Shown here in pieces: positions 3,730-16,257 of a DNA stretch of 64,000 nt; the first letter of the stretch is position 1, and each line of letters starts with the position of its first letter. The notes under the pieces were generated by a model. It saw only the letters and a list, made by a program, of their open reading frames with translations, had not been told where the DNA came from and made no database searches. The stretch is from Candidatus Latescibacterota bacterium. Lineage in GTDB: Bacteria; Latescibacterota; UBA2968; GCA-2709665. Made by a program: the position numbers and the translations under genes. Location: NCBI GenBank assembly GCA_965222075.1, contig OZ244937.1, positions 3,104,001 to 3,168,000 of the forward strand, in the 5' to 3' direction.

Positions 3730-3843
3730 ATGGGGTCAACACCCAGGCGCACAGACGCGCCAGGGCGCCCGATAGAGACCCCGAAAGCCGCGAAAGGCCT
3801 ACGAATACGACGCCCTCTGCACGCAAAGGCCAAAAGACGACAG

Positions 3844-6306
3844 ATGTCCGAAACCGCTGAAAAGCCCAAAACCGTCCGCCTCAGCCTCCCCATCTCCGGC
3901 ATGTCCTGCGCCGCATGCGCCTCCCGCATCGAAAAGGGCCTGCAGGAGGTCCCCGGCGTGGCCGAGGCAGTCGTCAACTTCGGCGTGGAGCAGGCCACAG
4001 TCGCCTACGATCCGAAGCGGGTCGGCGTCGAACAGCTCGCCGAAAAGATCGGCGTCCTCGGCTACGATGTCCGGGGGGATGAGGTCACCCTCTCGGTGAA
4101 AGGCATGTCCTGCGCCGCATGCGTCTCCCGTGTGGAATATGCCCTAAGAGCGATCCCCGGCGTCATCAAGGCGAATGTTAACTTTGCCACCCACCAGGCA
4201 ACCGTCCGCTACCTCAACATCGACGTGGACGCCCTGAAGCAGTCCGTGGCCGACGCCGGCTATGAGGCATCGATGGTTGAGGAAGAGCAGGTATCGGAAG
4301 ATCGGGAACGGGCCGACCGCCGGGCCGAATACCGGGCCGTTCGCCTCCGCTTCGTCGTGGGCGGCGTCCTCTCTGCCCTCATCATGGGTGTCGGCATGGT
4401 CCATACCCTCCTGGGCGTTGACCTCCCCACGCGGGAGATCCACCTCCTCCTCTTCCTGCTTGCAACCCCCGTCCAGTTCTGGTGCGGATGGCGGTTCCTG
4501 AAAGGCTTCCAGACCGCGCTTTGGCATGCCACGGCCGACATGAACAGCCTCATCGCCGTGGGCACCCTCGCCGCCTACGGCTACAGCACAGCCCTCACCT
4601 TTGCGCCCCGCGCCGTTGCCGAAGTCGGCCAGGCCCTGCACGTCTACTTCGACACCTCGGCCATGATAATCACCCTCATTCTCCTTGGCCGGATGCTGGA
4701 GGCCAGGGCTAAGGGGCGCACCTCCGACGCCATCCGCAAACTGATGGACCTCCGCCCCCAGACCGCCCGCCTCATCCGGGATGACCAGACCCTTGTGGTC
4801 CCCGTTGAAGAAGTCGCCGTGGGAGACCTCCTCCGCGTCCGCCCGGGAGAAAAAATTCCCGTGGACGGCGCCCTCTACCAGGGCCGTTCCACAGTGGACG
4901 AATCGATGGTCACCGGCGAGAGCATCCCCGTGAAAAAAGGCCCCAACAGCCAGGTCACCGGCGGCACCCTTAACAAAACCGGAACCTTCACCTTTCGGGC
5001 CACCCAGGTCGGGTCGGAAACCGTCCTGGCCCGCATCGTCCAGATGGTCCGGCAGGCCCAGGGGTCCCGTGCCCCCATCCAGCGCCTCGCCGACCGGGTT
5101 GCGGGCATCTTCGTGCCCATCGTCTTCGGCATCGCCCTCCTCACCTTCCTTCTCTGGTACACCCTCGGCCCGCAGCCCCCGCTTGCTGCGGGCCTCCTCA
5201 ACGCCGTCGCCGTCCTCATCATCGCCTGCCCCTGCGCAATGGGCCTGGCCACCCCCACCGCCATCATGGTCGGCACCGGCCGGGGCGCCGAATTCGGCGT
5301 CCTCATTAAAGGGGGCGACGTCCTGGAAACCGCCTGCCGGCTCGACACGGTCGTCTTAGACAAAACCGGCACCCTCACCACCGGCGCGCCCGCCGTCACC
5401 GACCTCATCCCCGCCGACGGCTTCAGCGAAAAGGACCTGCTTGTGCTGGCCGCCTCGGCCGAACAGGCCTCGGAGCACCCCCTCGGTGAGGCCATCCTCA
5501 AAGCGGCGGGCGAACAAAACCTCTCCCTGCGGGAGGCGCAGGCATTCGAAGCCTTCCCCGGAGAGGGCATCGCCGCAGAAATCGCAGGGGTCACCCTACT
5601 CCTGGGCAACCGGCGGCTGATGGAAAATCAGGAAGTTCTTCTGGACGGATGGGCAGGACAGGCAAAGCGGCTTGAAAGAGAAGGAAAAACCACCGTATTC
5701 ATCGCAGCCGACGGCCGGCCGGCGGGGCTTATCGGCATCGCCGACACCCTCAAGCCGGGGGCCGCAGACGCAGTGGCCGACCTCCACGGCCTGGGCCTGA
5801 AAGTCGCCCTGGTCACCGGCGACAACGCCCGAACCGCAGAGGCGGTCGCCCGGATCGTCGGCATCGACCGGGTGCTGTCCGAAGTCATGCCGGAAGGGAA
5901 AGCCGACCGGATCGCGGAGCTTCAGGCCGGGCGAAAAGGGGTCGGCATGGTAGGCGATGGCATCAACGACGCCCCCGCCTTAGCCCGGGCCGACGTCGGC
6001 ATCGCCATCGGCACCGGCGCAGACATCGCCAAAGAAAGCGCAGACATCACCCTCATCTCCGGAGATCTGAGCGGCATCGGCGCGGCGGTGCGGCTCTCTA
6101 AGAAGACCATGCGAGTCATTCGCCAGAACCTCTTCTGGGCATTTGCCTACAACACCCTCCTCATCCCCATCGCCGCTGTGGGCCTTCTCAACCCCCTTGG
6201 CGGCCCCATGCTCGCAGCGGCGGCCATGGCCTTCAGCTCCGTCTCCGTCCTCTCCAACTCCCTCCGGCTGCGGCGGTTCGATCCAACTCAGCGCCGGTTC
6301 GCATAA
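3844..6306 (+). CDS. copA: Cu(I)-translocating P1B-type ATPase
   Basis: Two GMSCAAC HMA domains, [25 protein letters not shown], and YN and MxxSS transmembrane ligands. Confidence 0.93.
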
Positions 6307-7409
6307 TTCAAAATCCCCTTCACAATCCGTTCGGCGCTCCGCTGCCGGTTCTTGTGAAACCGCAGCCTGTAGGCCTCGCCCCTGTCGTGCATATTGTGGA
6401 CCTCAACCAAGATCTCGGCATACGCCCGGTTGTTCCGGAGCACCCCCAAGTTGCGCCCCATGATCTGTGCGGGGAGATCGGGATGGTGCAGGGCCTTCTG
6501 CATCACCTGCGCGAACTTTCGGGAACGTTTATCGACCTTCCCCCTCCGGTTCAAATAGATCGCCAGCGGTCCCTTGGGCCGCCCCGGGCTGTTGTCTGCA
6601 TGCAGCGAAACAAAAAGGCTCTTCCCCTTCCGGGCGCCCTTGAAATGCCGGTTGGCAATCCTGACCCGTTGTAAGAGATTGTTCCCGCCGGGACGGACGG
6701 AGCCCGAACGCCTCTGGTTCCTCTTCGCGTCGTTGTAAACCTCGTTCTGCTCGTGCACGAAGGTCACGCTCGCCCGGAAGTTGTCGCGTATGAGGTGGTT
6801 GGGGCTGATCACCGTCAGCTCCACCTCCGCGCCCTTCAGCCGCAGAAGTTCGTATACCCGCAGCGCAATATCGTAGACATACTCGTCCTCAACCACGTAG
6901 ACCGAACGCTCCACCCCGTCCTTATTCGATACAATCGCCCCCGGATCGATGCCCCCATGCCCGGGATCAACCACCACCTTCCAGCCCTTCAGCGGCAGCC
7001 GCCTGCCCCGGTTTTGGGCCAGCCTGGCACGGATCTCTGCGTCGAACGCCTGCAATAGCGCACGGGCGTTCTGGTAATCCTTGATCGGTCGAAACCGGGA
7101 AGGCTCGATATACTTCCGGCTCTGCTGTGCAGCCACCCTCGGTTTATAAAAATAATAAGGACCGTTCTCGGCCTTTATCTCCTTGAGCCTGGGCCCCAAA
7201 CGCAGCACCTGTCCCGGATAGACCCGGTCGCTCCGGAGCCGGTTGAGCCGCTTGATCTCCTTTACGCTCACCTGGAACAGGCGGGCAATCGACCAGAGGG
7301 AATCCCCCTTCCGGACCTCGTACGTCAGAGAAAGCCCAAGCGGCTCCCCCAGGGTAAACAGGACCAGAAAAAGCCCGACACAGACCTGGAAAATGCGGTG
7401 TAAGGTCAT
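6288..7409 (-). CDS. LysM-domain N-acetylmuramoyl-L-alanine amidase (Amidase_3)
   Basis: Signal or anchor helix, LysM ([13 protein letters not shown]...VYPGQVL), [23 protein letters not shown]. Confidence 0.85.
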
Positions 7410-7477
7410 AGATTTAAAAACTGAAGGAGGATAAATTTTGGGGGGATTTGGCCTTGTGGTTGACCACAGCCGCGGAA

Positions 7478-7536
7478 CCCCGGGTACAAACGGTGCAGCA
7501 CCCGAACGCATGATGCCTCTGAGTTCGCAGTCGTGG
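7478..7536 (-). repeat. copy A of a dispersed non-coding element (homolog at 41129-41188)
   Basis: Manual alignment gives 43/60 identical columns with copy B. Lies in the amidase 5' region. Confidence 0.6.
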
Positions 7537-7662
7537 CCAATCGTCTTCAGGCGGCACCGAAGGGGCACGGTGCAAAGCCGGAAAAGACCCTTGAACATGC
7601 CAAAACATAGGGACTTTGGGGGAAAAAGGCAAGAGAAAGCGGCCAGACCGTATCCTGAACCG

Positions 7663-7704
7663 GTTGGTCCTTTTCACCGCTCAAGTTGGTGTTTTCCACC
7701 AACT
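7663..7704. promoter_or_regulatory. tandem palindromic enhancer (UAS) sites for a PspF-like activator
   Basis: Perfect AGTTGGTG-N5-CACCAACT (7684-7704) and a degenerate GTTGGTC-N5-CACCGCT 22 bp upstream, about 100-140 bp before a sigma54 promoter. Confidence 0.7.
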
Positions 7705-7799
7705 CTCTCATTTAAACGAGCTTGAACGAGCCCAATTTTCTTCTACATAAGTCTTATAAGAACAATTTCTTATATAAATATCTCCTGTTCATCAAAAAC

Positions 7800-7816
7800 C
7801 CGGCACGCCCCTTGCA
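7800..7816 (+). promoter_or_regulatory. sigma54 (-24/-12) promoter of the pspA operon
   Basis: CCGGCACGCCCCTTGCA gives GG(7802-03)-N10-GC(7814-15). Preceded by an AT-rich, IHF-like tract at about 7735-7785. Confidence 0.85.
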
Positions 7817-7874
7817 GAGAAGACGGCTGGAAGCTGCCGTTTCACGTTTCACAAAAAAGAGAGGAGCCACACCG

Positions 7875-8552
7875 ATGGCCAAAGGAATCTTTTCAAGAAT
7901 GGCGGACATCATCAAAGCCAACATCAACGACCTCCTGAATCGGGCGGAAGACCCGGAAAAGATGATCCGCCAGATGATCCTCGAAATGGAGGAGGCCGTC
8001 AACAAGGCGACCGCGTCCGTCGGCACCGCCGTGGCCAACGAGAAGCGGCTGGAGCGCCAGTGCCTCGAGAAAAAGGACCAGATCAAGGCCTGGCAGAAAA
8101 AGGCCGAACTCGCCGTCCAGGACGGAGAAGACGACCTGGCCCGGCGGGCGCTGGAACGGAAAGCGGCCCTGGAAGAGGCCGCCAAAGACTTGAGCGCCGC
8201 CCTCGACGAAAGCCAGCGGACCTCCAAACAGCTCAAACAGCAGCTCATGCAGCTCAAGGCCAAACTGGACGAAGCCCGCACCCGCCAGGGCGCCCTCATC
8301 GCCCGGCGCAAAGCCGCAGAAGCCCGCAAGCAGATCGCCAAAGGCCTCTCCGGCGTGGGTGACGATGCCTTCTCCAGCTTCGAGCGGTTCCGCCAGCGGG
8401 TTGAAACCGAAGAGGCCGAAGCCGAAGCCCACCAGGAAATCGCCGGTTCCGAGCCTTCGCTGGAAGACGCCTTCACCAAACTCGAACGGAAGAGCACGGT
8501 GGAAGAGGAACTTGAAGTCCTCAAGAAAAAACTGGGCCGGACCGATGCGTGA
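7875..8552 (+). CDS. pspA: phage shock protein A (PspA/IM30, ESCRT-III superfamily)
   Basis: MAKGIFSRMADIIKANINDLLNRAEDPEKM N-terminus, GEDDLARRALERK, coiled coils, GAGGAG RBS. Confidence 0.95.
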   Translation: MAKGIFSRMADIIKANINDLLNRAEDPEKMIRQMILEMEEAVNKATASVGTAVANEKRLERQCLEKKDQIKAWQKKAELAVQDGEDDLARRALERKAALEEAAKDLSAALDESQRTSKQLKQQLMQLKAKLDEARTRQGALIARRKAAEARKQIAKGLSGVGDDAFSSFERFRQRVETEEAEAEAHQEIAGSEPSLEDAFTKLERKSTVEEELEVLKKKLGRTDA

Positions 8553-8762
8553 CGTCCAGAAAATCTTAGACGAAATCGCCTGCTCAAACTCGCCCGGGAA
8601 AAGGGCGGCAGCCTCACCGTCCTCGAAGCCGCCACCGATGCCCGCATGACCGTAGAAAAGGCCGAGGAGATCCTCCGAGAACTGGCCGCCCGGGGCCACG
8701 CCGAGGTCCGCGTCTCCGAGTCGGGCCTCATCGTCTACTACTTCCCGGTGCACGAACTCTGA
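8545..8762 (+). CDS. small winged-helix protein with a broken reading frame (frameshift or readthrough needed)
   Basis: Frame 8553-8762 encodes ...RLLKLAREKGGSLTVLEAATDARMTVEKAEEILRELAARGHAEVRVSESGLIVYYFPVHEL*. ATG 8545 (MRDVQKILDEI) joins it only with a -1 shift. Not in the ORF track. Confidence 0.6.
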
Positions 8763-8781
8763 AACCTCAGGGAGGGCTGTC

Positions 8782-8991
8782 ATGATCGAAGTCGGATTTG
8801 GAGTTGCGCTGATCATCCTCGCTGTTGCGATCCTCAAATACGTGGAGCGACGCTACAAAGGCGCCATCCCCAGCGATGCCGAAGAACGGCTCATGGCCCG
8901 AATGGCCGAACTCGAACGACGCCTCACAGACATCCAGGACGTCATGATCACCATCGACGAAAAAATGAGCAGGAGCAATCCGGAGGAATGA
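8782..8991 (+). CDS. PspB-like single-TM coiled-coil protein
   Basis: GGAGG RBS, N-terminal TM, C-terminal RMAELERRLTDIQDVMITIDEK coiled coil, downstream of pspA. Confidence 0.75.
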   Translation: MIEVGFGVALIILAVAILKYVERRYKGAIPSDAEERLMARMAELERRLTDIQDVMITIDEKMSRSNPEE

Positions 8992-9117
8992 TCTTCAGTG
9001 ACGCCGAAAAACGGCTCATTGGCCTGGATAGACGAACTCGAACGCATGCTCACAGACATCCAGGACGTCATGATCACCATCGACAATAAAATGAGCAGGC
9101 CCAAAGTGGAAATTTAA
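8988..9117 (+). pseudogene. partial tandem duplicate of the PspB-like gene (coiled coil only, 1-bp insertion)
   Basis: 8997-9099 repeats 8872-8973, with ATG GCC changed to ATTG GCC. A TTG-started 32-aa peptide (9019-9117) is possible. Confidence 0.65.
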
Positions 9118-9150
9118 ACCGTTCACCCAAACCCACAGGGAGGAAAATAA

Positions 9151-9408
9151 ATGATAGGCTGGATCCTGGAACTGATGATCGGCTTCTCTCTGATCATCGT
9201 CGTAAGCGGAACAGTAAGCTACGTTCACCTGAGGCTGAAACGCGCCTCGAAGGGAGTGAATCCGGACCGGGCCAAGCGGATGGAAGCCCGGCTGGACACC
9301 CTGGAACAGAGGTTGACCGATATTCAGGACATTATCATCGCCATCGACGAGAAGCTGAACCGGGCAGACTACCGACCGCCATCTCCGGTCCAAACAGACA
9401 AAGGATAA
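9151..9408 (+). CDS. PspB-like single-TM coiled-coil protein, paralog
   Basis: GGAGG RBS, TM helix, LEQRLTDIQDIIIAIDEKL matching 8782-8991. Confidence 0.75.
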   Translation: MIGWILELMIGFSLIIVVSGTVSYVHLRLKRASKGVNPDRAKRMEARLDTLEQRLTDIQDIIIAIDEKLNRADYRPPSPVQTDKG

Positions 9409-9412
9409 CGCC

Positions 9413-9592
9413 ATGCTCTCCAAAATCCTCGGCATCATCTTGATCGTCATCGGGGGTTCCCTGGCCCTCGGTGTCCTGTTTCAACTGATCGGCTCAATTG
9501 TCGGACTGCTCTGGGCCATGATCAAACTGGCCATACCGCTGGTCCTCCTCTACGTCGGCTACCGGCTGCTCACACGGGAACCGGATTATTAA
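9413..9592 (+). CDS. 59-aa two-TM membrane protein (PspG/LiaI-like)
   Basis: MLSKILGIILIVIGGSLALGVLFQLIGSIVGLLWAMIKLAIPLVLLYVGYRLLTREPDY*, with AAGGA RBS. Fills the operon gap and is below the ORF-track cutoff. Confidence 0.75.
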   Translation: MLSKILGIILIVIGGSLALGVLFQLIGSIVGLLWAMIKLAIPLVLLYVGYRLLTREPDY

Positions 9593-9604
9593 AGGGGTTG
9601 AAAA

Positions 9605-10186
9605 ATGCCACAAACAGAAGACCGCGTCCTGATCCGTCGGGTGCTGGCGGGAGATCACTCAGCTTTTGACACCCTCTACAAGACCCACCATCCACAGGTC
9701 TACGCCATGATCGCCCGTCGCGTCTCCGACAGAGACCTCACAGAAGACCTGGTCCAGACCACCTTCCTGCGCGCCTTCCGTTCCCTTAACACCTACCGGG
9801 GCGACGCGGCCTTCTCCACCTGGCTGACTCAGATCGCCTTAAACGTCTTCAAATCTCACCTCCGGGCGCAGCGGGTGCGGCAGACCTGGGTACACGAAAC
9901 CGAAGACCCCGAACGGGCGACCGGAATCGACCGGGAGCCGGCCCCCTGTGAAAATCCCGAACAGGTGATGCAGCAGAAAGAACGCCGAAAACTCGTCATA
10001 CAGGGCATCCGGTCTCTGCCTGCGCGTTACCGCAAAGCGGTCTGGCTGCGCTACATCAAGGACTGGTCCTACGAAGAAATCACGCAGGCGCTCCAGGTGC
10101 CGATGGGCACGGTCAAAACCCGGCTCTGCCGGGGGCGCCGGCAGTTGAAAGGGGAATTTCGCAAACTGGGCCTCCAGGCAGTATAG
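9605..10186 (+). CDS. ECF RNA polymerase sigma factor
   Basis: EDLVQTTFLRAFRSL, FSTWLTQIALN, SYEEI...PMGTVKTRLCRGR (regions 2 and 4). Confidence 0.92.
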   Translation: MPQTEDRVLIRRVLAGDHSAFDTLYKTHHPQVYAMIARRVSDRDLTEDLVQTTFLRAFRSLNTYRGDAAFSTWLTQIALNVFKSHLRAQRVRQTWVHETEDPERATGIDREPAPCENPEQVMQQKERRKLVIQGIRSLPARYRKAVWLRYIKDWSYEEITQALQVPMGTVKTRLCRGRRQLKGEFRKLGLQAV

Positions 10187-10199
10187 CGGTAGATAGACC

Positions 10200-10229
10200 T
10201 TGACAATCGGGCGGTATTATACATATCAT
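10200..10229 (+). promoter_or_regulatory. putative sigma70 promoter for nfeD-flotillin
   Basis: TTGACA-N18-TATCAT, followed by an AAGGAGG RBS. Confidence 0.5.
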
Positions 10230-10255
10230 GTCGGCCCGGACGAAAGGAGGCAGCC

Positions 10256-10861
10256 ATGGAAGCCTGGTGGACAAACCTGACCACGTTGAACCAGATCCTC
10301 TACCTCGTGGCGATCTTTTTCAGCACGCTCTTCGCCTGGCAGTTTGCGGCGGCCCTGCTCGGCCTGGGAGGGGGCGCCGATGTGGGCGGGGGCGACGCGA
10401 CCGCAGGGGATGCCGGACCGGAGATCGACGACATGGTCCAGGACGCAAGCGTGGCCGCCTTCAAACTCCTGTCGGTCCGTTCCATCATCGCATTTGGCAT
10501 GCTCTTCGGCTGGGCCGGCGCGCTCTACCTCCAGTCGGGCACCGAGGTGGAAAGCGCGCTCCTCTACAGCCTGGTCTGGGGGGCCGCCGCGATGGTCGCC
10601 GTGGCCTATTTTTACCACGGCATTCAGCAGCTCACCGAGACCGGCAACCCCAAGCTGGAGACCTGCGTCGGCGCGTCGGGTGAGGTCTACATCGACATCC
10701 CCGAAAACGGGATCGGGCAGATCCGCGTGGTGGAAAGCGGCGCGGTCTCCTACGTATCCGCCCGGGGGAAAAACGGCGCCCCGATCCCGAACAAGACTCC
10801 GGTATGGGTACGGCGGGTAATCGATGGGACCACGCTCGAGGTCGAACAAATCGAACCCTGA
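10256..10861 (+). CDS. NfeD-like (YuaF/YqiJ-type) membrane protein with C-terminal OB fold
   Basis: Three TM segments, VGASGEVYIDIPENGIGQI OB-fold, directly upstream of flotillin. Confidence 0.85.
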   Translation: MEAWWTNLTTLNQILYLVAIFFSTLFAWQFAAALLGLGGGADVGGGDATAGDAGPEIDDMVQDASVAAFKLLSVRSIIAFGMLFGWAGALYLQSGTEVESALLYSLVWGAAAMVAVAYFYHGIQQLTETGNPKLETCVGASGEVYIDIPENGIGQIRVVESGAVSYVSARGKNGAPIPNKTPVWVRRVIDGTTLEVEQIEP

Positions 10862-10897
10862 ACCCGAAAGCCAACCCACCCCTCAAAGGAGGCTCAT

Positions 10898-12442
10898 ATG
10901 CCAAATCCGATGATCCTGACGATGATTTTAGTCGCGGTCGTGTTTCTGCTGTTCCTGACCTTCATCTCCAGGTACAAGCGCTGCCCGTCCAACAATATCC
11001 TGGTGATCTACGGCAAAACAGGGAGTGGTGCGGCCAAGTGCGTGCACGGAGGCGCGGCCTTCGTCCTGCCCCTGTTGCAGGACTACAAATACCTGGACTT
11101 GGAGCCGTTCGTCGTGCCCATCGACTTAGACAATGCGCTCTCCCAGGAAAACATCCGGGTGTCCGTGCCCACAACGGTCACTGCCGCCGTCTCGAACCAG
11201 CAGGGCATCATGCAAAACGCCGCGGTCCGCCTCCTGGGCCTGTCGCACGACCAGATCCAGAGCCAGGCGCAGGACATCATCCTGGGCCAGATGCGGGCCG
11301 TGATTGCAACAATGGAGATCGAAGAGATCAACCAGGACCGGCAGGCCTTTATGGGCAAGGTCAACGAGGCGGTCTCCACCGAGATGGAAAAAATCGGTCT
11401 GGCCGTGATCAACGTGAACATCAAAGACATCGAGGACGAAAGCGGATATATCAAAGCCCTCGGCCAGAAAGCGGCGGCCGAAGCAATCAACCAGGCGGCC
11501 ATCGACGTGGCCGAGCAGGAGAAAATGGGCAAGGTGGGGGTGGCCGAGCGGGAAAGGGACCAGCGCACGGATGTGGCCGCTGCGAACGCGGCCGCTGAAA
11601 TCGGTGAATCCCAGGCCGCCCGGGACCGGCGTCAGAGGGTCGCCGCCCTCGAATCCGAAGCCGAAATCGGTGAATCCCAGGCCGCCCGGGACCGGCGCCA
11701 GAGTGTCTCCTCTCTGGATGCGGAAGCGGTCCAGGCCGAGGCCGAGGCCGAATCCAAGAAGGCCGGCTACATGGCCCAGCAGAGGGTGGCCGAGGAGGTT
11801 GCCCGGCAAAAAGGGCAGGAGGCCGCAAAGGCCGCAGACGGCGCCATCCGGGTCGCGCAGGAACGGGCGGAGAAAGAGGCCGAGGAAGCCCGGGCGCTGC
11901 GCGAAGAAGCGCGTCTGAAAGCCGAAATCGTCGTACACGCCGAAGCGGAAAAACAGAAGCTGGTGGTACAGTCCGAGGCCGAGAAAACGCAGAAAACCCT
12001 GGTGGCAGAAGGGGAGGCCGCCGCCATCCTGGCCCAGAAGCAAGCCGAAGCCCAGGGCACGCAGGCCATCCTGGATGCGAAGGCCGAAGGTTACAGAGAG
12101 CTGGTGGCCGCATGCGGCGGAAAAGATCAGGCTGCCGCAGCCTTCCTCATCATCGAGCGGCTCACCGAGGTGGCGGGCATCCAGGCCGAGGCCATTCAGA
12201 ACCTGCCTTTGGAGAAGGTGATGGTCTGGGACGGCGGCAATGAACAGGGCGGCCTGTCCAACCTGGGCCAGCGCCTGATGGGCACCATCCCCCCGATGCA
12301 CGATCTGGCCCGGCTGGCCGGCCTGGAGCTCCCTGAATTCCTCGGCAGAATGACGGGAAGCAGCGAGCAGCAGACGCACACGTCCGACAGCGGCGGTGGC
12401 GGTACAGCGGAGGCGGGGGGCCAGACCGGGCCGTCCACTTAA
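10898..12442 (+). CDS. flotillin-family SPFH protein (FloT/YqiK-like)
   Basis: N-terminal TM, RYKRCPSNNILVIYG, SPFH domain, AEA-rich flotillin coiled coil, IPPMHDL tail. Confidence 0.92.
   Translation: MPNPMILTMILVAVVFLLFLTFISRYKRCPSNNILVIYGKTGSGAAKCVHGGAAFVLPLLQDYKYLDLEPFVVPIDLDNALSQENIRVSVPTTVTAAVSNQQGIMQNAAVRLLGLSHDQIQSQAQDIILGQMRAVIATMEIEEINQDRQAFMGKVNEAVSTEMEKIGLAVINVNIKDIEDESGYIKALGQKAAAEAINQAAIDVAEQEKMGKVGVAERERDQRTDVAAANAAAEIGESQAARDRRQRVAALESEAEIGESQAARDRRQSVSSLDAEAVQAEAEAESKKAGYMAQQRVAEEVARQKGQEAAKAADGAIRVAQERAEKEAEEARALREEARLKAEIVVHAEAEKQKLVVQSEAEKTQKTLVAEGEAAAILAQKQAEAQGTQAILDAKAEGYRELVAACGGKDQAAAAFLIIERLTEVAGIQAEAIQNLPLEKVMVWDGGNEQGGLSNLGQRLMGTIPPMHDLARLAGLELPEFLGRMTGSSEQQTHTSDSGGGGTAEAGGQTGPST
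11597..11728 (+). repeat. 66-bp in-frame tandem duplication within flotillin
   Basis: EIGESQAARDRRQRVAALESEA followed by EIGESQAARDRRQSVSSLDAEA. Confidence 0.85.
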
Positions 12443-12447
12443 AAGGG

Positions 12448-13815
12448 GTGATTCCTTTGGAAAAAACCCGGGTCCAGGACGCCGACCTCTGCTTCAAAAC
12501 CGGCCTGCGTGCCCTCAAACAGGATAAAAGGGCGGAGGCCCGGCAGGCCTTCGAGGGCGCTGTCGAGCTGCACCCGGACCATCTCAACGCCCGGTTCCAA
12601 CTCGCCCTCCTCTACGCCCGGGGCGGCGCGCCCGGTTCTGCGGGCCGGCAGAAAGCCGTAGCGGCCCTGCAGCACATCCTCGGCGTTGCCGGCCGGGGCG
12701 TGCCCTGTGCGAACCTGGACCGGGTCTGCTTCCTGTTGGGCAGCTTTCTGGACGACACACCCGAAAACCGGGGGAAGGCCATCGCAATCTACCGTCGGGG
12801 GCTCGACGCAGACCCCCTCTTTGCCCCGGGGCACAACAACCTGGGTGTCCTGCTGATGCAATCGGGCCAGACCATCCCGGCCCTGGGCGCCTTTAAAATC
12901 GCCCTCCACTTGGAGCCCGATTACACCCTCCCCTACCAGAACCTGGCCCGCCTCCTCTTCGACCACATGAGCCCTGCCCAGATGGAGCGGGAATACACCT
13001 CCATCATCGAAGAATTTGGCGTTCAGGCACCCCTGGTCCTCTCCAGGCTCTCCCTCGAACTCATCGATCTGGGCCGGGCGCAGGTCTATGAGAGCCTCTA
13101 CACCCGGGGCCACCAGATCAAGAACCTCATGGGCGTGGTCGGCAGCCGGATGCGCCGGCTGATCCGAGAATCGTCGCCCGATGAGAAAGGCCTCGACGAC
13201 CTCAAAGACATTGCCCGCGAACAGGAACGGGTCTACGACCAGTGGGTCGCCTACCTCCGCTCTATGAAACAGCACCCCATGAACCCCACGCTGGTGGAGA
13301 TCCCCCAGCTGGTCCGGAAAGCAAGCGAAAAGGTCGTCACCCGGAAAGGAAGAAAGACCCTCCGCTTCGCATCAGAAGCCCATGTTCCCCAGGTCAAGGC
13401 AGACCCCGGCATGCTCCGCGAGGCTGTCACCAACCTCATCCTCAACGCCCTCGAAGCCGTCGGAGAGGATGGAAAGGTCACCCTTCAGACCGGCTACGAT
13501 CCCAAACGCGCCTCGGTCTACGTCGAAGTGGAGGACAACGGCCCGGGTATCTCCAAACCCCTCCAGGTCCGGATCTTCGACCCCGGATACTCCACCAAAG
13601 AAAAGGGGAACGGCTACGGCCTCAGCATCTGCGCCCGGATCGTCTCGGCCCACCGCGGTAACCTCCGGGTAATGAGCCGGCCCGGCGCCGGCGCCGTCTT
13701 TCGGATTGACCTGCCGGTCGACTTCGAACTCGCCTCCGAAGAGGAGAGCATCGGCCTCCAGGGCGCCCCGCTGCAAACCGCGCGTCACCCCCTCGCCGAG
13801 GAGTTCATCAAGTGA
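12448..13815 (+). CDS. soluble TPR-repeat sensor histidine kinase
   Basis: TPR motifs (HNNLGVLL, PYQNLA), H-box GHQIKN, NLILNALEA, DNGPGI, FDPGYSTK, GNGYGL. No TM segment. Confidence 0.88.
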   Translation: MIPLEKTRVQDADLCFKTGLRALKQDKRAEARQAFEGAVELHPDHLNARFQLALLYARGGAPGSAGRQKAVAALQHILGVAGRGVPCANLDRVCFLLGSFLDDTPENRGKAIAIYRRGLDADPLFAPGHNNLGVLLMQSGQTIPALGAFKIALHLEPDYTLPYQNLARLLFDHMSPAQMEREYTSIIEEFGVQAPLVLSRLSLELIDLGRAQVYESLYTRGHQIKNLMGVVGSRMRRLIRESSPDEKGLDDLKDIAREQERVYDQWVAYLRSMKQHPMNPTLVEIPQLVRKASEKVVTRKGRKTLRFASEAHVPQVKADPGMLREAVTNLILNALEAVGEDGKVTLQTGYDPKRASVYVEVEDNGPGISKPLQVRIFDPGYSTKEKGNGYGLSICARIVSAHRGNLRVMSRPGAGAVFRIDLPVDFELASEEESIGLQGAPLQTARHPLAEEFIK

Positions 13816-15218
13816 AGGCGCACATCCTCATCGCCGACGACCAGCCCGAAATCCTGGACATGCTCACCCGCAGCCTCCAGGCCGACGGCCGGACCGTTCA
13901 GGCCTTTCCCTCCAGCGCCAACGCGCTTGGCTATCTGCAAAAACACGCCCCGGCAGTCGACATGGCCATCCTCGACCTCGACTTTGGCCCCGGCGAACCC
14001 GACGGCCTGGAAACCCTCCGGCAGATGCGGCAAGAAGCGCCCGACCTGCCCGTAATCATCCTTACCGGCAAAGGCACCGTGGAAACCGCCGTAGCTGCCC
14101 TGCGCCTGGGCGCGGCCGACTTCATTGAAAAAGACTTCTACATCGAAGACAGGCTTGAACTCAGCCTGGAAAAACTCGACCGGATGCTCTCTGTCCTCCG
14201 GGAAAATGCCCGGCTGCGGGCCGAAGTGGACGACCTCGACCGGGAAAACCGGTTCTACCGGGCCGAATTCGGAAAGCGCTACCAGGTCATCAGCGTCAGT
14301 CCCCAGATGCAGCAGATCATGCAGCAGGCCGAGCGCATCGCCTCCATCCCCCGCCCCGTCCTCATCCTGGGCGAACGGGGCACCGGCAAAGAACTGGTGG
14401 CCGCCGCGGTCCACTACGGGGGCGTGCGCAAAGACCGCCCCTTTGTCAAAGTCAACTGCGCGGCCCTCTCCGCCACCCTCTTGGAAAGCGAACTCTTCGG
14501 GCACGAAAAAGGGGCCTTCACCGGTGCGGTCGAGGCCCGCCCGGGCCGGTTCGAGGCCGCCAACGGGGGCACCCTCTTCTTAGACGAAATCGCCAGCACC
14601 ACCCCCGAGTTTCAGCAGAACATCCTGCGCGCCATCGAATACCAGGAAGTACAGCGGGTCGGCGCTGCCGCGCCGGTACCGGTGGACGTGCGCATCATCG
14701 CCGCTACGAATGCCGACCTCGAACGGGAAATGGCCGAAGGCCGCTTCCGGGAGGACCTCTACGACCGCCTCCGGTTCGAAATCATCCGCATCCCCCCCCT
14801 CCGGCAGCGCCGGGAAGACATCCAGCCCTTAGCAGAGTTTTTCGCCGAACAGATCCTCCAGGAAGTCCCCGGCCTTGTACGCCGTCCCTTTTCAAACGCC
14901 GCCACAAAACGGCTGCTCGCTTACGGCTGGCCGGGCAACGTGCGCGACCTCAAATTCGCCGTGGAGCGGGCCGCCTGCATGGTCGCCGGCCCCGCCATCG
15001 AACCCGACGACCTGCCTCCCGAAATCGCCTCGGGCGCATTCGAACCCTCCGGTGAGGGATTTGAAGCGCAGACGAGGGCCTTTGAACTGGGCTTGCTCCG
15101 CCAGGCCCTGCACGCCACCGCCTGGAACCAGCGGCAGGCCGCCGCCCAATTGAAACTCAGCTACGACCAGTTCCGCCACCGCTACCGGAAATACGACCTG
15201 GACCGGGAAAAGCCGTAG
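13812..15218 (+). CDS. sigma54-dependent response regulator, REC fused to PspF-like AAA+/HTH
   Basis: REC (IADD, ILDL, IEK), [44 protein letters not shown] overlap with the kinase. Confidence 0.92.
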
Positions 15219-15247
15219 CGACACCCAAACGGCCACCACCTTCCACA

Positions 15248-15279
15248 GGCCCGAGCATTCGGGCCATTTTATTGTTTTT
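15248..15279 (+). terminator. intrinsic terminator ending the Psp/two-component locus
   Basis: GGCCCGA-GCAT-TCGGGCC hairpin followed by ATTTTATTGTTTTT. Confidence 0.7.
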
Positions 15280-15315
15280 CGGTAAACACGGGGGGGCGAC
15301 CCGAACGCGGCGCAT

Positions 15316-15355
15316 CCTGCCTGCCTGCGCCGGGCTGTGCTCGGCAGGCAGGCAG
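15316..15355. repeat. CCTGC...GCAGG palindromic element
   Basis: CTGCCTGCCTGC...GCAGGCAGGCAG inverted repeat. Confidence 0.7.
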
Positions 15356-15504
15356 AACCGATTCGATCAACTCCGATAAGGTCTTGTCGTCCGCTTTGGT
15401 CTCGACTGCGGCAAAACGCGCCATCTGCGCACCAGAACCTGACCAACCCATCCGGTTTTATTCGCATTGGAGATGAAGAACAGGCGAAACAACAAGGAGG
15501 CCCC

Positions 15505-16257
15505 ATGAACATCGTCGTATTCGGCGCAGCCGGCTGGACGGGACGGGCCGTGCTGGCCAACCTGGCCGGCAGGCACCATGTCCGCGCATTCGACCGCGGC
15601 CCCGAGGCCTGGGAATCGTGGAAAGATATCGAGGGAGCGTGGGAAGGCGAAATCGTCCACGGCGACATTGCCGACTTCAACGCCGTCCACAACGCCATCG
15701 AAGGAATGGACGCCGTCATTCATACGGCCGTCTACTACAGCGGCGATATCGAAGATAAAAACCCCTTCCTCATCAACCTCAAAGGCCTGTGGAACGTCCT
15801 GGAATCCGCCCACCGGCACGGCCTCAACCGGGCCGTTCACATCGGCTCCTGCCAGACCGTGCACCCCAAAGGCATCTTCTTTACCGCCGACGTCAGACGC
15901 CCGGACGGCGGACTCTACGCCGTCTGCAAGCGCCTGCAGGAGGAGATGTGCCGCCAATTCCACGATGCCTTCGACATGCGCATCGTCGTCCTCCGCCCCC
16001 AGTACATCGTAGACAGCCGCCTGGGAATCGACAAGTACAGGAAAAAAATGGGGTCGGAGGAAATGCCGCTCCGTGAAGGCTGGGTCTGCCGGCACGACTT
16101 AGCCGAAGCCTGCCGGCTCGCGGTCGAGTCTGAAACCGTCGACTTCGACATCTTTCACATCGTCGGCACGCCCGAGTCCGACAGAACCTGCAACGCCGCC
16201 CACTCGCGGGAGGCGCTGGGGCTGACATACAGAGGCAACCTGGAACAGTATCGATAG
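15505..16257 (+). CDS. NAD-dependent epimerase/dehydratase (uronate dehydrogenase-like extended SDR)
   Basis: GAAGWTG, YAVCK (YxxxK), AAGGAGG RBS. Confidence 0.85.
   Translation: MNIVVFGAAGWTGRAVLANLAGRHHVRAFDRGPEAWESWKDIEGAWEGEIVHGDIADFNAVHNAIEGMDAVIHTAVYYSGDIEDKNPFLINLKGLWNVLESAHRHGLNRAVHIGSCQTVHPKGIFFTADVRRPDGGLYAVCKRLQEEMCRQFHDAFDMRIVVLRPQYIVDSRLGIDKYRKKMGSEEMPLREGWVCRHDLAEACRLAVESETVDFDIFHIVGTPESDRTCNAAHSREALGLTYRGNLEQYR

Follow-up and report, generated by a model that had tools for sequence, protein, structure and literature searches.

A probable phosphorelay-controlled, sigma-54-dependent phage-shock locus with inserted ECF and flotillin genes in Candidatus Latescibacterota

Psp (phage shock protein)/IM30 proteins are bacterial relatives of ESCRT-III, and the upstream sensing of membrane damage is understood in only a few model species. 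In a genome of Candidatus Latescibacterota, a locus whose parts all lie on the plus strand (positions 7660 to 15280 of the 64,000-nt stretch analyzed here, called the window) combines pspA with genes for an extracytoplasmic function (ECF) sigma factor, a flotillin, a histidine kinase, and a sigma-54 activator. Such a run raises the question of how it is controlled: as one cascade that merges Psp, ECF-flotillin, and two-component schemes, as a sequence-only reading of this DNA had proposed, or as neighboring systems with separate control. We consider it probable that the locus encodes a phosphorelay-controlled, sigma-54-dependent Psp system, specific to a lineage of Latescibacterota, that gained an ECF and a flotillin module. 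The locus is real and strongly conserved, and it is perhaps partly degenerate in this genome. Below, W denotes a family of membrane winged-helix proteins, B a family of small proteins with one transmembrane (TM) helix, 2TM a 59-aa peptide, and HK and RR the kinase and the activator. The regulatory elements, with pspA, are as follows.

7665 to 7679, plus strand: candidate activator site 1, TGGTC-N5-CACCG (TGGT-N7-ACCG), with conserved TGG and CC columns.
7687 to 7701, plus strand: candidate activator site 2, a perfect dyad TGGTG-N5-CACCA, 22 bp after site 1 and ~100 bp before the promoter.
7802 to 7816, plus strand: predicted sigma-54 promoter GGCACG-N4-TTGCA, with GG at 7802-7803 and GC at 7814-7815 (GG-N10-GC).
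7875 to 8552, plus strand: pspA, 225 aa (PF04012, E 2e-46, above cut-off).
12448 to 13815, plus strand: soluble histidine kinase with TPR repeats, an H-box (H222), and HATPase_c (HATPase_c 8e-23, plus TPR families).
13812 to 15218, plus strand: PspF-like sigma-54 activator, REC-AAA+(GAFTGA)-HTH_8 (Sigma54_activat 9.9e-65, Response_reg 5.2e-22).

The genome encodes rpoN (442 bits against a cut-off of 277), and transcription from the pspA promoter is predicted to start near position 7827, given the usual -24/-12 spacing. The dyads stand 100 to 140 bp upstream of the promoter, with an AT-rich stretch between. When the region upstream of pspA was aligned with 16 orthologous regions, the GG, the TGC, and the dyad halves emerged as conserved columns in 17/17 sequences while most other columns varied; this statement refers to alignment columns, since a strict regular expression matched only 8/17 of the regions. 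In a third family, which encodes a shorter W, 5/5 loci carry TGGCAC-N5-TTGC and two TGGC-N7-GCCA dyads. Promoter and both dyads are found upstream of pspA in 22/22 loci (17 + 5) with diverged flanks, and the kinase-activator pair lies within the same locus in 21 of the 22 (the exception is L025). Across the class, the kinase-activator pair and the putative sigma-54 promoter with its activator-type dyads are conserved as a set. A genome-wide scan for sigma-54-like promoters with at least two dyads 40 to 250 bp upstream, drawn from 243 promoter-like and 2763 dyad-like matches, returned the pspA site and one other (1925319, minus strand); its patterns were derived from the pspA site, so the scan is not independent of it. 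We take the conserved columns and the rarity of such sites in the genome to mean that the elements did not arise by chance.

Two further observations concern pspA itself. A second pspA outside the window (G000:C1:2702263-2703250, minus strand; 56% identical), followed by a PhyH-like gene named by eye, is preceded by one similar dyad, GTTGGTGGTTTTTACCA, ~170 nt away, with TGGCAC-N5-TTGT closer in. Dyad and promoter-like element are both kept in the relative G004, though the sequence between them differs, and this gene may be a second target of the same activator. Within the predicted 5′ leader of the first pspA, CGTTTCA occurs twice in tandem (7838 to 7851), and in another population (run X9) the repeat occurs three times and an A is added directly ahead of the start codon.

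The sequence-only reading had named a gene order not conserved in relatives as one refutation, and the order is conserved. Among 16 loci fetched, 13 consist of an amidase-like gene on the minus strand followed by pspA-W-B(1-4)-2TM-ECF-NfeD-Flot-HK-RR; L024 is without B and NfeD-Flot, L027 is without NfeD-Flot, and L025 is reduced to pspA, a B fragment, and the 2TM gene. A W-profile scan of genome contigs found 37 loci, titled Candidatus Latescibacterota or, in a few cases, Gemmatimonadota or "bacterium," many of them from the same genomes as the 16 fetched. The activator is reached in 34 of the 37 (three are too short), and 34/34 of these keep the order pspA-W-(B)-ECF-(NfeD-Flot)-HK-RR and its strand, with NfeD-flotillin present in 32. 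Orthologues of pspA were 70 to 95% identical in 30/30 relatives searched. In a phylum-wide scan, W was matched in 101 of 168 genomes: full-length W in 20/21 genomes of the window's family and 30/31 of its sister family, the shorter W (two TM helices and a winged helix) in 50/76 of the third family, and none in the other eleven families (0/39). Third-family loci read pspA-W(short)-B-HK-RR in 5/5 cases, with no room for ECF, NfeD, or flotillin genes; the 2TM-ECF and NfeD-flotillin genes sit between B and the kinase only within the taxonomic order of the window. Since the third-family locus holds only pspA, W, B, kinase, and activator, comparison of the loci indicates that these genes and the predicted sigma-54 promoter are the core, into which 2TM-ECF and NfeD-flotillin were inserted later. 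The merger that had been proposed holds up as stepwise evolution and probably not as a single cascade transcript. The inserted genes, and a promoter that lies among them, are as follows.

9413 to 9592, plus strand: two-TM hairpin peptide (2TM), 59 aa, directly upstream of the ECF gene (hydropathy; alignment of 14 sequences).
9605 to 10186, plus strand: ECF-type sigma factor, 193 aa, regions 2 and 4 only (Sigma70_r2 4.8e-17, r4_2 1.9e-15).
10200 to 10229, plus strand: sigma-70-like promoter TTGACA-18-TATCAT before nfeD, matching 11/12 consensus positions.
10256 to 10861, plus strand: NfeD/YqiJ-like membrane protein, three TM helices and a C-terminal beta domain (sub-threshold Pfam matches, Foldseek, Atlas neighbors).
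10898 to 12442, plus strand: flotillin-type SPFH protein, 514 aa, with an N-terminal TM anchor (Band_7 3.3e-27).

The run is probably not one transcript because a conserved sigma-70-like promoter precedes nfeD. By eye, TTGAC(A/G/T)-17/18-T(A/G)TCA(T/C) is kept in 7 same-family sequences, and the other family has a different element, TTGC(T/G)TT. Two RNA-library contigs begin at 10241 and 10244, just past the -10 element, a hint only and from one study. It is likely that two promoters serve the locus, the sigma-54 promoter for pspA through the ECF gene, with read-through possible, and a housekeeping-type promoter for nfeD, flotillin, kinase, and activator. Of the claim of one cascade from a single run, the place of the ECF gene inside the run, 12 nt after the preceding gene, is upheld, and the promoter before nfeD speaks against a single transcript. 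A separate observation on that promoter is that its -10 element contains one additional T in run X9 (position 10225).

That conserved promoter also fits a different account, by which the locus is a set of separately controlled neighboring modules, no functional sigma-54-to-ECF cascade exists, and gene order reflects shared membrane function. The modules would be pspA and the small genes, governed by sigma-54; the ECF gene with its own promoter; nfeD-flotillin; and kinase-activator. Relatives have gaps of 290 to 450 nt before nfeD and before the kinase, leaving room for promoters; the modules were inserted stepwise and occur apart, and in L022 an insertion of 1.5 kb separates the 2TM gene from the ECF gene. 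In the window, however, the B3-2TM and 2TM-ECF gaps are only 4 and 12 nt, in a run where pspA/W and HK/RR overlap, ECF and nfeD are separated by 70 nt, and the remaining spacers are 4 to 37 nt, none exceeding 70 nt. Neither a sigma-70-like promoter nor a convincing terminator was found in 7816 to 10186, and the constancy of order and strand in 34/34 loci also speaks against independent modules. So does the bridging of B3/2TM by an RNA-library contig. Four RNA libraries labelled sponge metagenome contain parts of the stretch; in the two runs compared in detail, both from one study, contigs of at least 99% match bridge the pspA/W, B3/2TM, NfeD/Flot, Flot/HK, and HK/RR junctions, and 10060 to 10240, between ECF and nfeD, is without a contig. 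Altogether, we regard separate control of all modules as unlikely.

For the phosphorelay-controlled Psp system that we favor, the place of the ECF sigma factor is the next point. Its top NCBIfam models are RpoE and SigW, both below their cut-offs; it has three paralogues in the same genome at 49 to 58% identity, and the third family has no orthologue above 38%. The absence of a visible anti-sigma factor, remarked on from the sequence, was upheld: none of the 11 products of the locus matches an anti-sigma Pfam domain, and the neighbors of the ECF gene are those for the 2TM peptide and the NfeD-like protein. Since no anti-sigma factor is recognizable, control of the ECF gene at the level of transcription is the simplest reading. 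No convincing shared ECF-type promoter motif was seen upstream of 2TM, nfeD, or the ECF paralogues when these were compared by eye, with no motif-finding program. One paralogue, 51% identical (G000:C1:3768356-3769021, minus strand), has upstream a TGGCACG-N4-TCGC element and two copies of AGCGGACACTT; because a sigma-54-like element and repeats precede it, more than one ECF gene in this genome may be under sigma-54 control. The ECF paralogues adjoin ABC-transporter-like genes and small one-TM open reading frames, judged by eye, and not canonical anti-sigma genes.

The kinase and activator bear on what switches the sigma-54 promoter. The kinase is without a hydrophobic segment by hydropathy and has no Pfam HisKA match; G221 and H222 are invariant in 15 sequences, and the NR(II) model aligns from residue 220 (in NtrB, H139 is the phosphorylated histidine). 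Together the two proteins have the makeup of an NtrC-family pair, with REC, a GAFTGA-bearing AAA+ domain, and HTH_8 in the regulator and an H-box and HATPase_c in the kinase. PspF is defined by AAA+ and helix-turn-helix domains without an N-terminal regulatory domain, and the activator departs from this definition by its receiver domain, which retains the acidic pocket and Asp as read from the translation. At the position aligned with W56 of E. coli PspF (segment YLSSRWQGPF), presumably a PspA-binding determinant, the activator has a lysine. The receiver domain, the NtrB/AtoS-type kinase, and the lost W56-aligned residue point to a phosphorelay, rather than PspA binding, as the putative main switch. 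An E. coli-style control, in which bound PspA keeps the PspF-like AAA+ domain silent and dissociates from it under membrane stress while kinase and receiver are secondary, is very unlikely in our judgment. It is favored by likeness to the E. coli proteins: the AAA+ and helix-turn-helix part is closest to PspF among NCBIfam models (TIGR02974, 344 bits, below the cut-off of 443.55) and shares 44% identity with the E. coli protein over 309 residues (3e-87), and PspA, its N-terminal helix included, shares 40% with its E. coli counterpart (TIGR02977, 186 bits, below the equivalog cut-off of 243). The lysine at a position whose role we presume, the intact receiver pocket, and the co-conservation of kinase and activator in 34/34 loci and 5/5 third-family loci all argue against such control.

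What the kinase senses can be approached through its domains. The kinase probably reads a protein ligand, since it is soluble and TPR is its only input domain. Soluble products encoded with it are PspA and the ECF sigma factor (third-family loci are without the latter), and W and B carry conserved cytoplasmic parts. A complex prediction for the kinase TPR domain (residues 1 to 205) with PspA scored 0.09 against a mark of 0.32 and counts neither for nor against an interaction. Acidic C-terminal tails are frequent ligands of TPR domains, and the C terminus of the kinase itself (13795 to 13812) ends in an invariant A-E-E-F, which could be an intramolecular TPR ligand.

Phosphorelay control of a sigma-54-dependent Psp operon would then work as follows. 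The soluble TPR kinase would phosphorylate the receiver-bearing, PspF-like activator, which would bind the two TGG-N9-CCA dyads ~100 to 140 bp upstream and open the pspA promoter. The resulting sigma-54 transcript would carry pspA, W, B, 2TM, and the ECF gene, such that activation would also raise an ECF sigma factor without a recognizable anti-sigma factor and add a second tier of output through an ECF regulon. The sigma-70-like promoter before nfeD would supply basal kinase and activator to start the loop, and read-through from the pspA promoter could provide positive feedback. As to the signal, our guess is that the TPR domain may read the state of PspA or of the W and B membrane proteins. 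A bolder version holds that the phosphorelay replaces PspA-PspF switching altogether, that the TPR kinase reads free PspA or the conserved cytoplasmic helix of B, that sigma-54 and an ECF factor free of anti-sigma control form a membrane-repair relay, and that W in relatives nucleates PspA at the membrane, comparable to the recruitment of ESCRT-III by the winged helices of ESCRT-II; taken as a whole, this seems to us distinctly improbable.

Several points weigh against the phosphorelay-controlled system with an ECF tier. The organism is uncultured. The pairing of the dyads with this activator is deduced solely from their co-conservation. The third family works without ECF and flotillin, and two genera have ECF without flotillin, which makes the modules separable; the internal promoter may likewise mean that the ECF and flotillin parts are separately regulated. 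Neither starts nor strand nor a single transcript can be read from RNA-library contigs, which may include DNA. One of the small proteins, or the product of a gene elsewhere, could serve as an anti-sigma factor, and no ECF-type promoter was found, which keeps the second tier hypothetical. Finally, relatives couple the translation of W to that of pspA, whereas W is broken in this genome, so its system may have partly degenerated.

The broken gene, which had been listed as a winged-helix open reading frame, turned out to be the remnant of a conserved protein with two TM helices and a winged helix, frameshifted by a 250-bp deletion.

8545 to 8762, plus strand: remnant of gene W, with the first 11 codons in one frame and the winged-helix part in another.

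Compared with a congener, the remnant is without 250 bp (the frameshifting loss) and a further 39 bp, and the frame of its winged-helix part has no start codon before 8646. An assembly error was ruled out as the source of the frameshift, as DNA contigs of two other studies span 7400 to 8952 without an indel. Intact W in relatives is 202 to 223 aa long (~213), and its start overlaps the pspA stop; it consists of an N-terminal helix, a conserved DLATDGSCAMRY motif, two TM helices, and a C-terminal winged helix. The wider W family (~150 aa, two TM helices and winged helix) has 990 representatives at an E value of ≤0.001 and no Pfam model. A Foldseek search with the AlphaFold2 model of W (predicted local distance difference test [pLDDT], 72) gave generic winged-helix matches only, the best at an E value of 0.0095 and none at ≤0.001, and the ESCRT-II rows were nonsignificant.

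Downstream of W, the sequence-only reading had counted three PspB-like genes. Two of these are intact, the third is a frameshifted, TM-less duplicate, and the likeness to PspB fails in profile tests.

8782 to 8991, plus strand: B1, an N-terminal TM helix and a conserved cytoplasmic helix, RLTDIQD..I.IDEK.
8991 to 9117, plus strand: B2, a TM-less partial duplicate of the 3′ half of B1 with a 1-nt register shift.
9151 to 9408, plus strand: B3, the second intact B-family gene, 85 aa, with one N-terminal TM helix.

Direct repeats D1 and D2 of the B1/B2 region are spaced 126 and 125 nt apart. The family has the plan of PspB, a TM helix and then a cytoplasmic helix, and we rejected the identification of the B genes as pspB on the Pfam PspB model and a profile-profile comparison: PF06667 had zero matches in the locus at an E value of ≤10 and matched 1 of 24 B-family members (E value of 0.022), and hhalign of the B family against 12 enterobacterial PspB sequences, themselves a shallow profile, gave a probability of 10.5%. 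A search returned 373 B-family members at an E value of ≤0.001, the best 120 of which are without a Pfam domain or an informative name, and copy number ranges from 0 to 5 across loci. The C-terminal helix of the family is also fused to other membrane domains, and two- or three-TM versions occur in other relatives; in G004 (L014:7085-7441, minus strand) it is fused to Pfam TM2 (PF05154, E value of 5.6e-19; 1 of 24 members). The conserved helix looks like a portable module. Among the B genes of L019, L020, L021, and L028 there is an open reading frame of ~124 aa that resembles a STAS/anti-sigma antagonist by eye. The 2TM peptide that follows the B genes matched no Pfam family, and its best score in an Atlas search was 0.83, a lead only.

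The assignment of the gene after the ECF sigma factor as NfeD also came from the sequence-only reading, and the support for it is sub-threshold yet consistent across Pfam, Foldseek, and the Atlas. In an SPFH-NfeD operon, this would be the partner with a C-terminal OB fold whose gene immediately precedes that of the SPFH protein. Pfam NfeD matches 8 of 13 orthologues, all below cut-off (best E value of 0.011; 0.062 for the protein of the window). The model has a pLDDT of 61, and 40 to 56 in the beta domain, and NfeD proteins take Foldseek ranks 1 to 3, 6, and 25, with E values of 1.7e-3 to 2.4e-2 for the top three. Atlas neighbors carry NfeD_TM or YqiJ families, and a PDB sequence search with the NfeD-like profile gave zero matches at an E value of ≤10. 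In the relative G004, the gene (L014:5569-6169, minus strand) matches in two pieces (residues 1 to 104 and 106 to 200), which suggests a frameshift or stop. The flotillin scores 135 bits with the FloT model, below the cut-off of 700.

At its end, the run closes with a terminator.

15248 to 15278, plus strand: intrinsic terminator with a 7-bp GC stem and T-rich tail (stem-loop at 15248 to 15265, then a T run).

An Rfam search over 7000 to 15800 gave zero matches at an E value of ≤0.1. Among the parts that had been picked out from the sequence, the dyads, the sigma-54 promoter, pspA, the 2TM peptide, the ECF sigma factor, the flotillin, the TPR kinase, the REC-AAA+ activator, and this terminator were all recovered at their positions. 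On the other side of the locus, the divergent neighbor of pspA (6288 to 7598, minus strand) is a LysM-type amidase-like gene that adjoins pspA in 16/16 loci, and beyond it lies a heavy-metal P-type ATPase-like open reading frame (3730 to 6306, plus strand); both were named by eye.

In published work, PspA has been placed beside a TM+band-7+flotillin protein and a three-TM protein of the YqiJ/YuaF type in the covered sections of PMC11237479, and an Acidobacteriota network in those of PMC9239133 links PspA to band-7/flotillin with NfeD. Unlike the present locus, the PspA-band-7/flotillin contexts in these sections center on a CesT/Tir-PspA dyad, an AAA+ ATPase, or helix-turn-helix regulators, and in none of those covered does a sigma-54 promoter occur together with a REC-PspF activator, a TPR kinase, and an ECF sigma factor (the supplements and web app of PMC11237479 lie outside this coverage). 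Two-component systems beside pspA in the same sections of the two papers have membrane kinases and REC-helix-turn-helix regulators, and PspF variants have ACT or PAS domains or none; a Desulfovibrio vulgaris PspF-like regulator without an N-terminal domain appears in the covered part of PMC4641369. Our literature searches returned nothing on Latescibacter phage shock and no description of this wiring, similar contexts to which the supplements and web app of PMC11237479 could hold. Of the suggestion that the architecture was undescribed, the part on regulatory wiring stands, with the W and B families likewise not found in print, and the part on PspA-flotillin-NfeD linkage does not, as that linkage is already published. 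The locus consists of known parts wired in a way not yet described, a new regulatory Psp variant with two undescribed partner families. It matters as a case of stepwise recruitment of an ECF sigma factor and a flotillin scaffold into a Psp operon, for two uncharacterized protein families tightly tied to PspA, and as part of a candidate phylum without a cultured member.

One of the closest known systems is PspF/pspABCDE of E. coli. There, too, two upstream activator sites and an AT-rich spacer precede the sigma-54 promoter of pspA, the activator consists of PspF-type AAA+ and Fis-type helix-turn-helix domains, and small membrane proteins are encoded after pspA. Here, in contrast, a receiver domain is part of the activator, which has a soluble TPR kinase as its cognate partner and carries a lysine at the W56 position; its gene is last in the run and not divergent; PspB and PspC are absent; and an ECF sigma factor and NfeD-flotillin lie inside the locus. 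The lack of a visible PspC, noted earlier from the sequence, extends to the whole genome, where the best PF04024 match has an E value of 0.275, with none over the cut-off and none in the locus. In Bacillus subtilis, the ECF sigma factor SigW stands at the top of the response, has the anti-sigma factor RsiW, and is encoded elsewhere. The pspA-ydjGHI and yuaF-floT genes of its regulon resemble the present locus in tying PspA to an SPFH protein and membrane adaptors, in the involvement of an ECF sigma factor, and in the nfeD-type/flotillin pair. In B. subtilis, YdjI has been shown experimentally to tie PspA to the SPFH protein and to be required for PspA at the membrane (PMC8581546, in the part covered). 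W, B, and 2TM are unrelated to YdjG and YdjH as these are described in the covered part of PMC11237479. Here, unlike in B. subtilis, the ECF gene belongs to the pspA run itself and follows a sigma-54 promoter, and no anti-sigma factor is visible. A sigma-54 enhancer-binding protein that drives an ECF sigma factor without an anti-sigma factor, in a two-tier cascade, is known from HrpR/HrpS-HrpL of Pseudomonas syringae. That cascade controls type III secretion, not membrane stress, and its ECF gene is monocistronic. In the LiaRS-liaIH system of Bacillota, as in our locus, a two-component system induces a PspA homologue and a small membrane anchor (PMC11237479, covered sections). Lia differs in having a membrane kinase, LiaF, and a REC-helix-turn-helix regulator that acts on sigma-A promoters, whereas here the kinase is a soluble TPR protein and the regulator belongs to the sigma-54 enhancer-binding proteins. 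The Latescibacterota locus would add to PspA-PspF partner switching and LiaFSR a third regulatory logic, in which a soluble TPR kinase and a REC-PspF activator work through a sigma-54 promoter.

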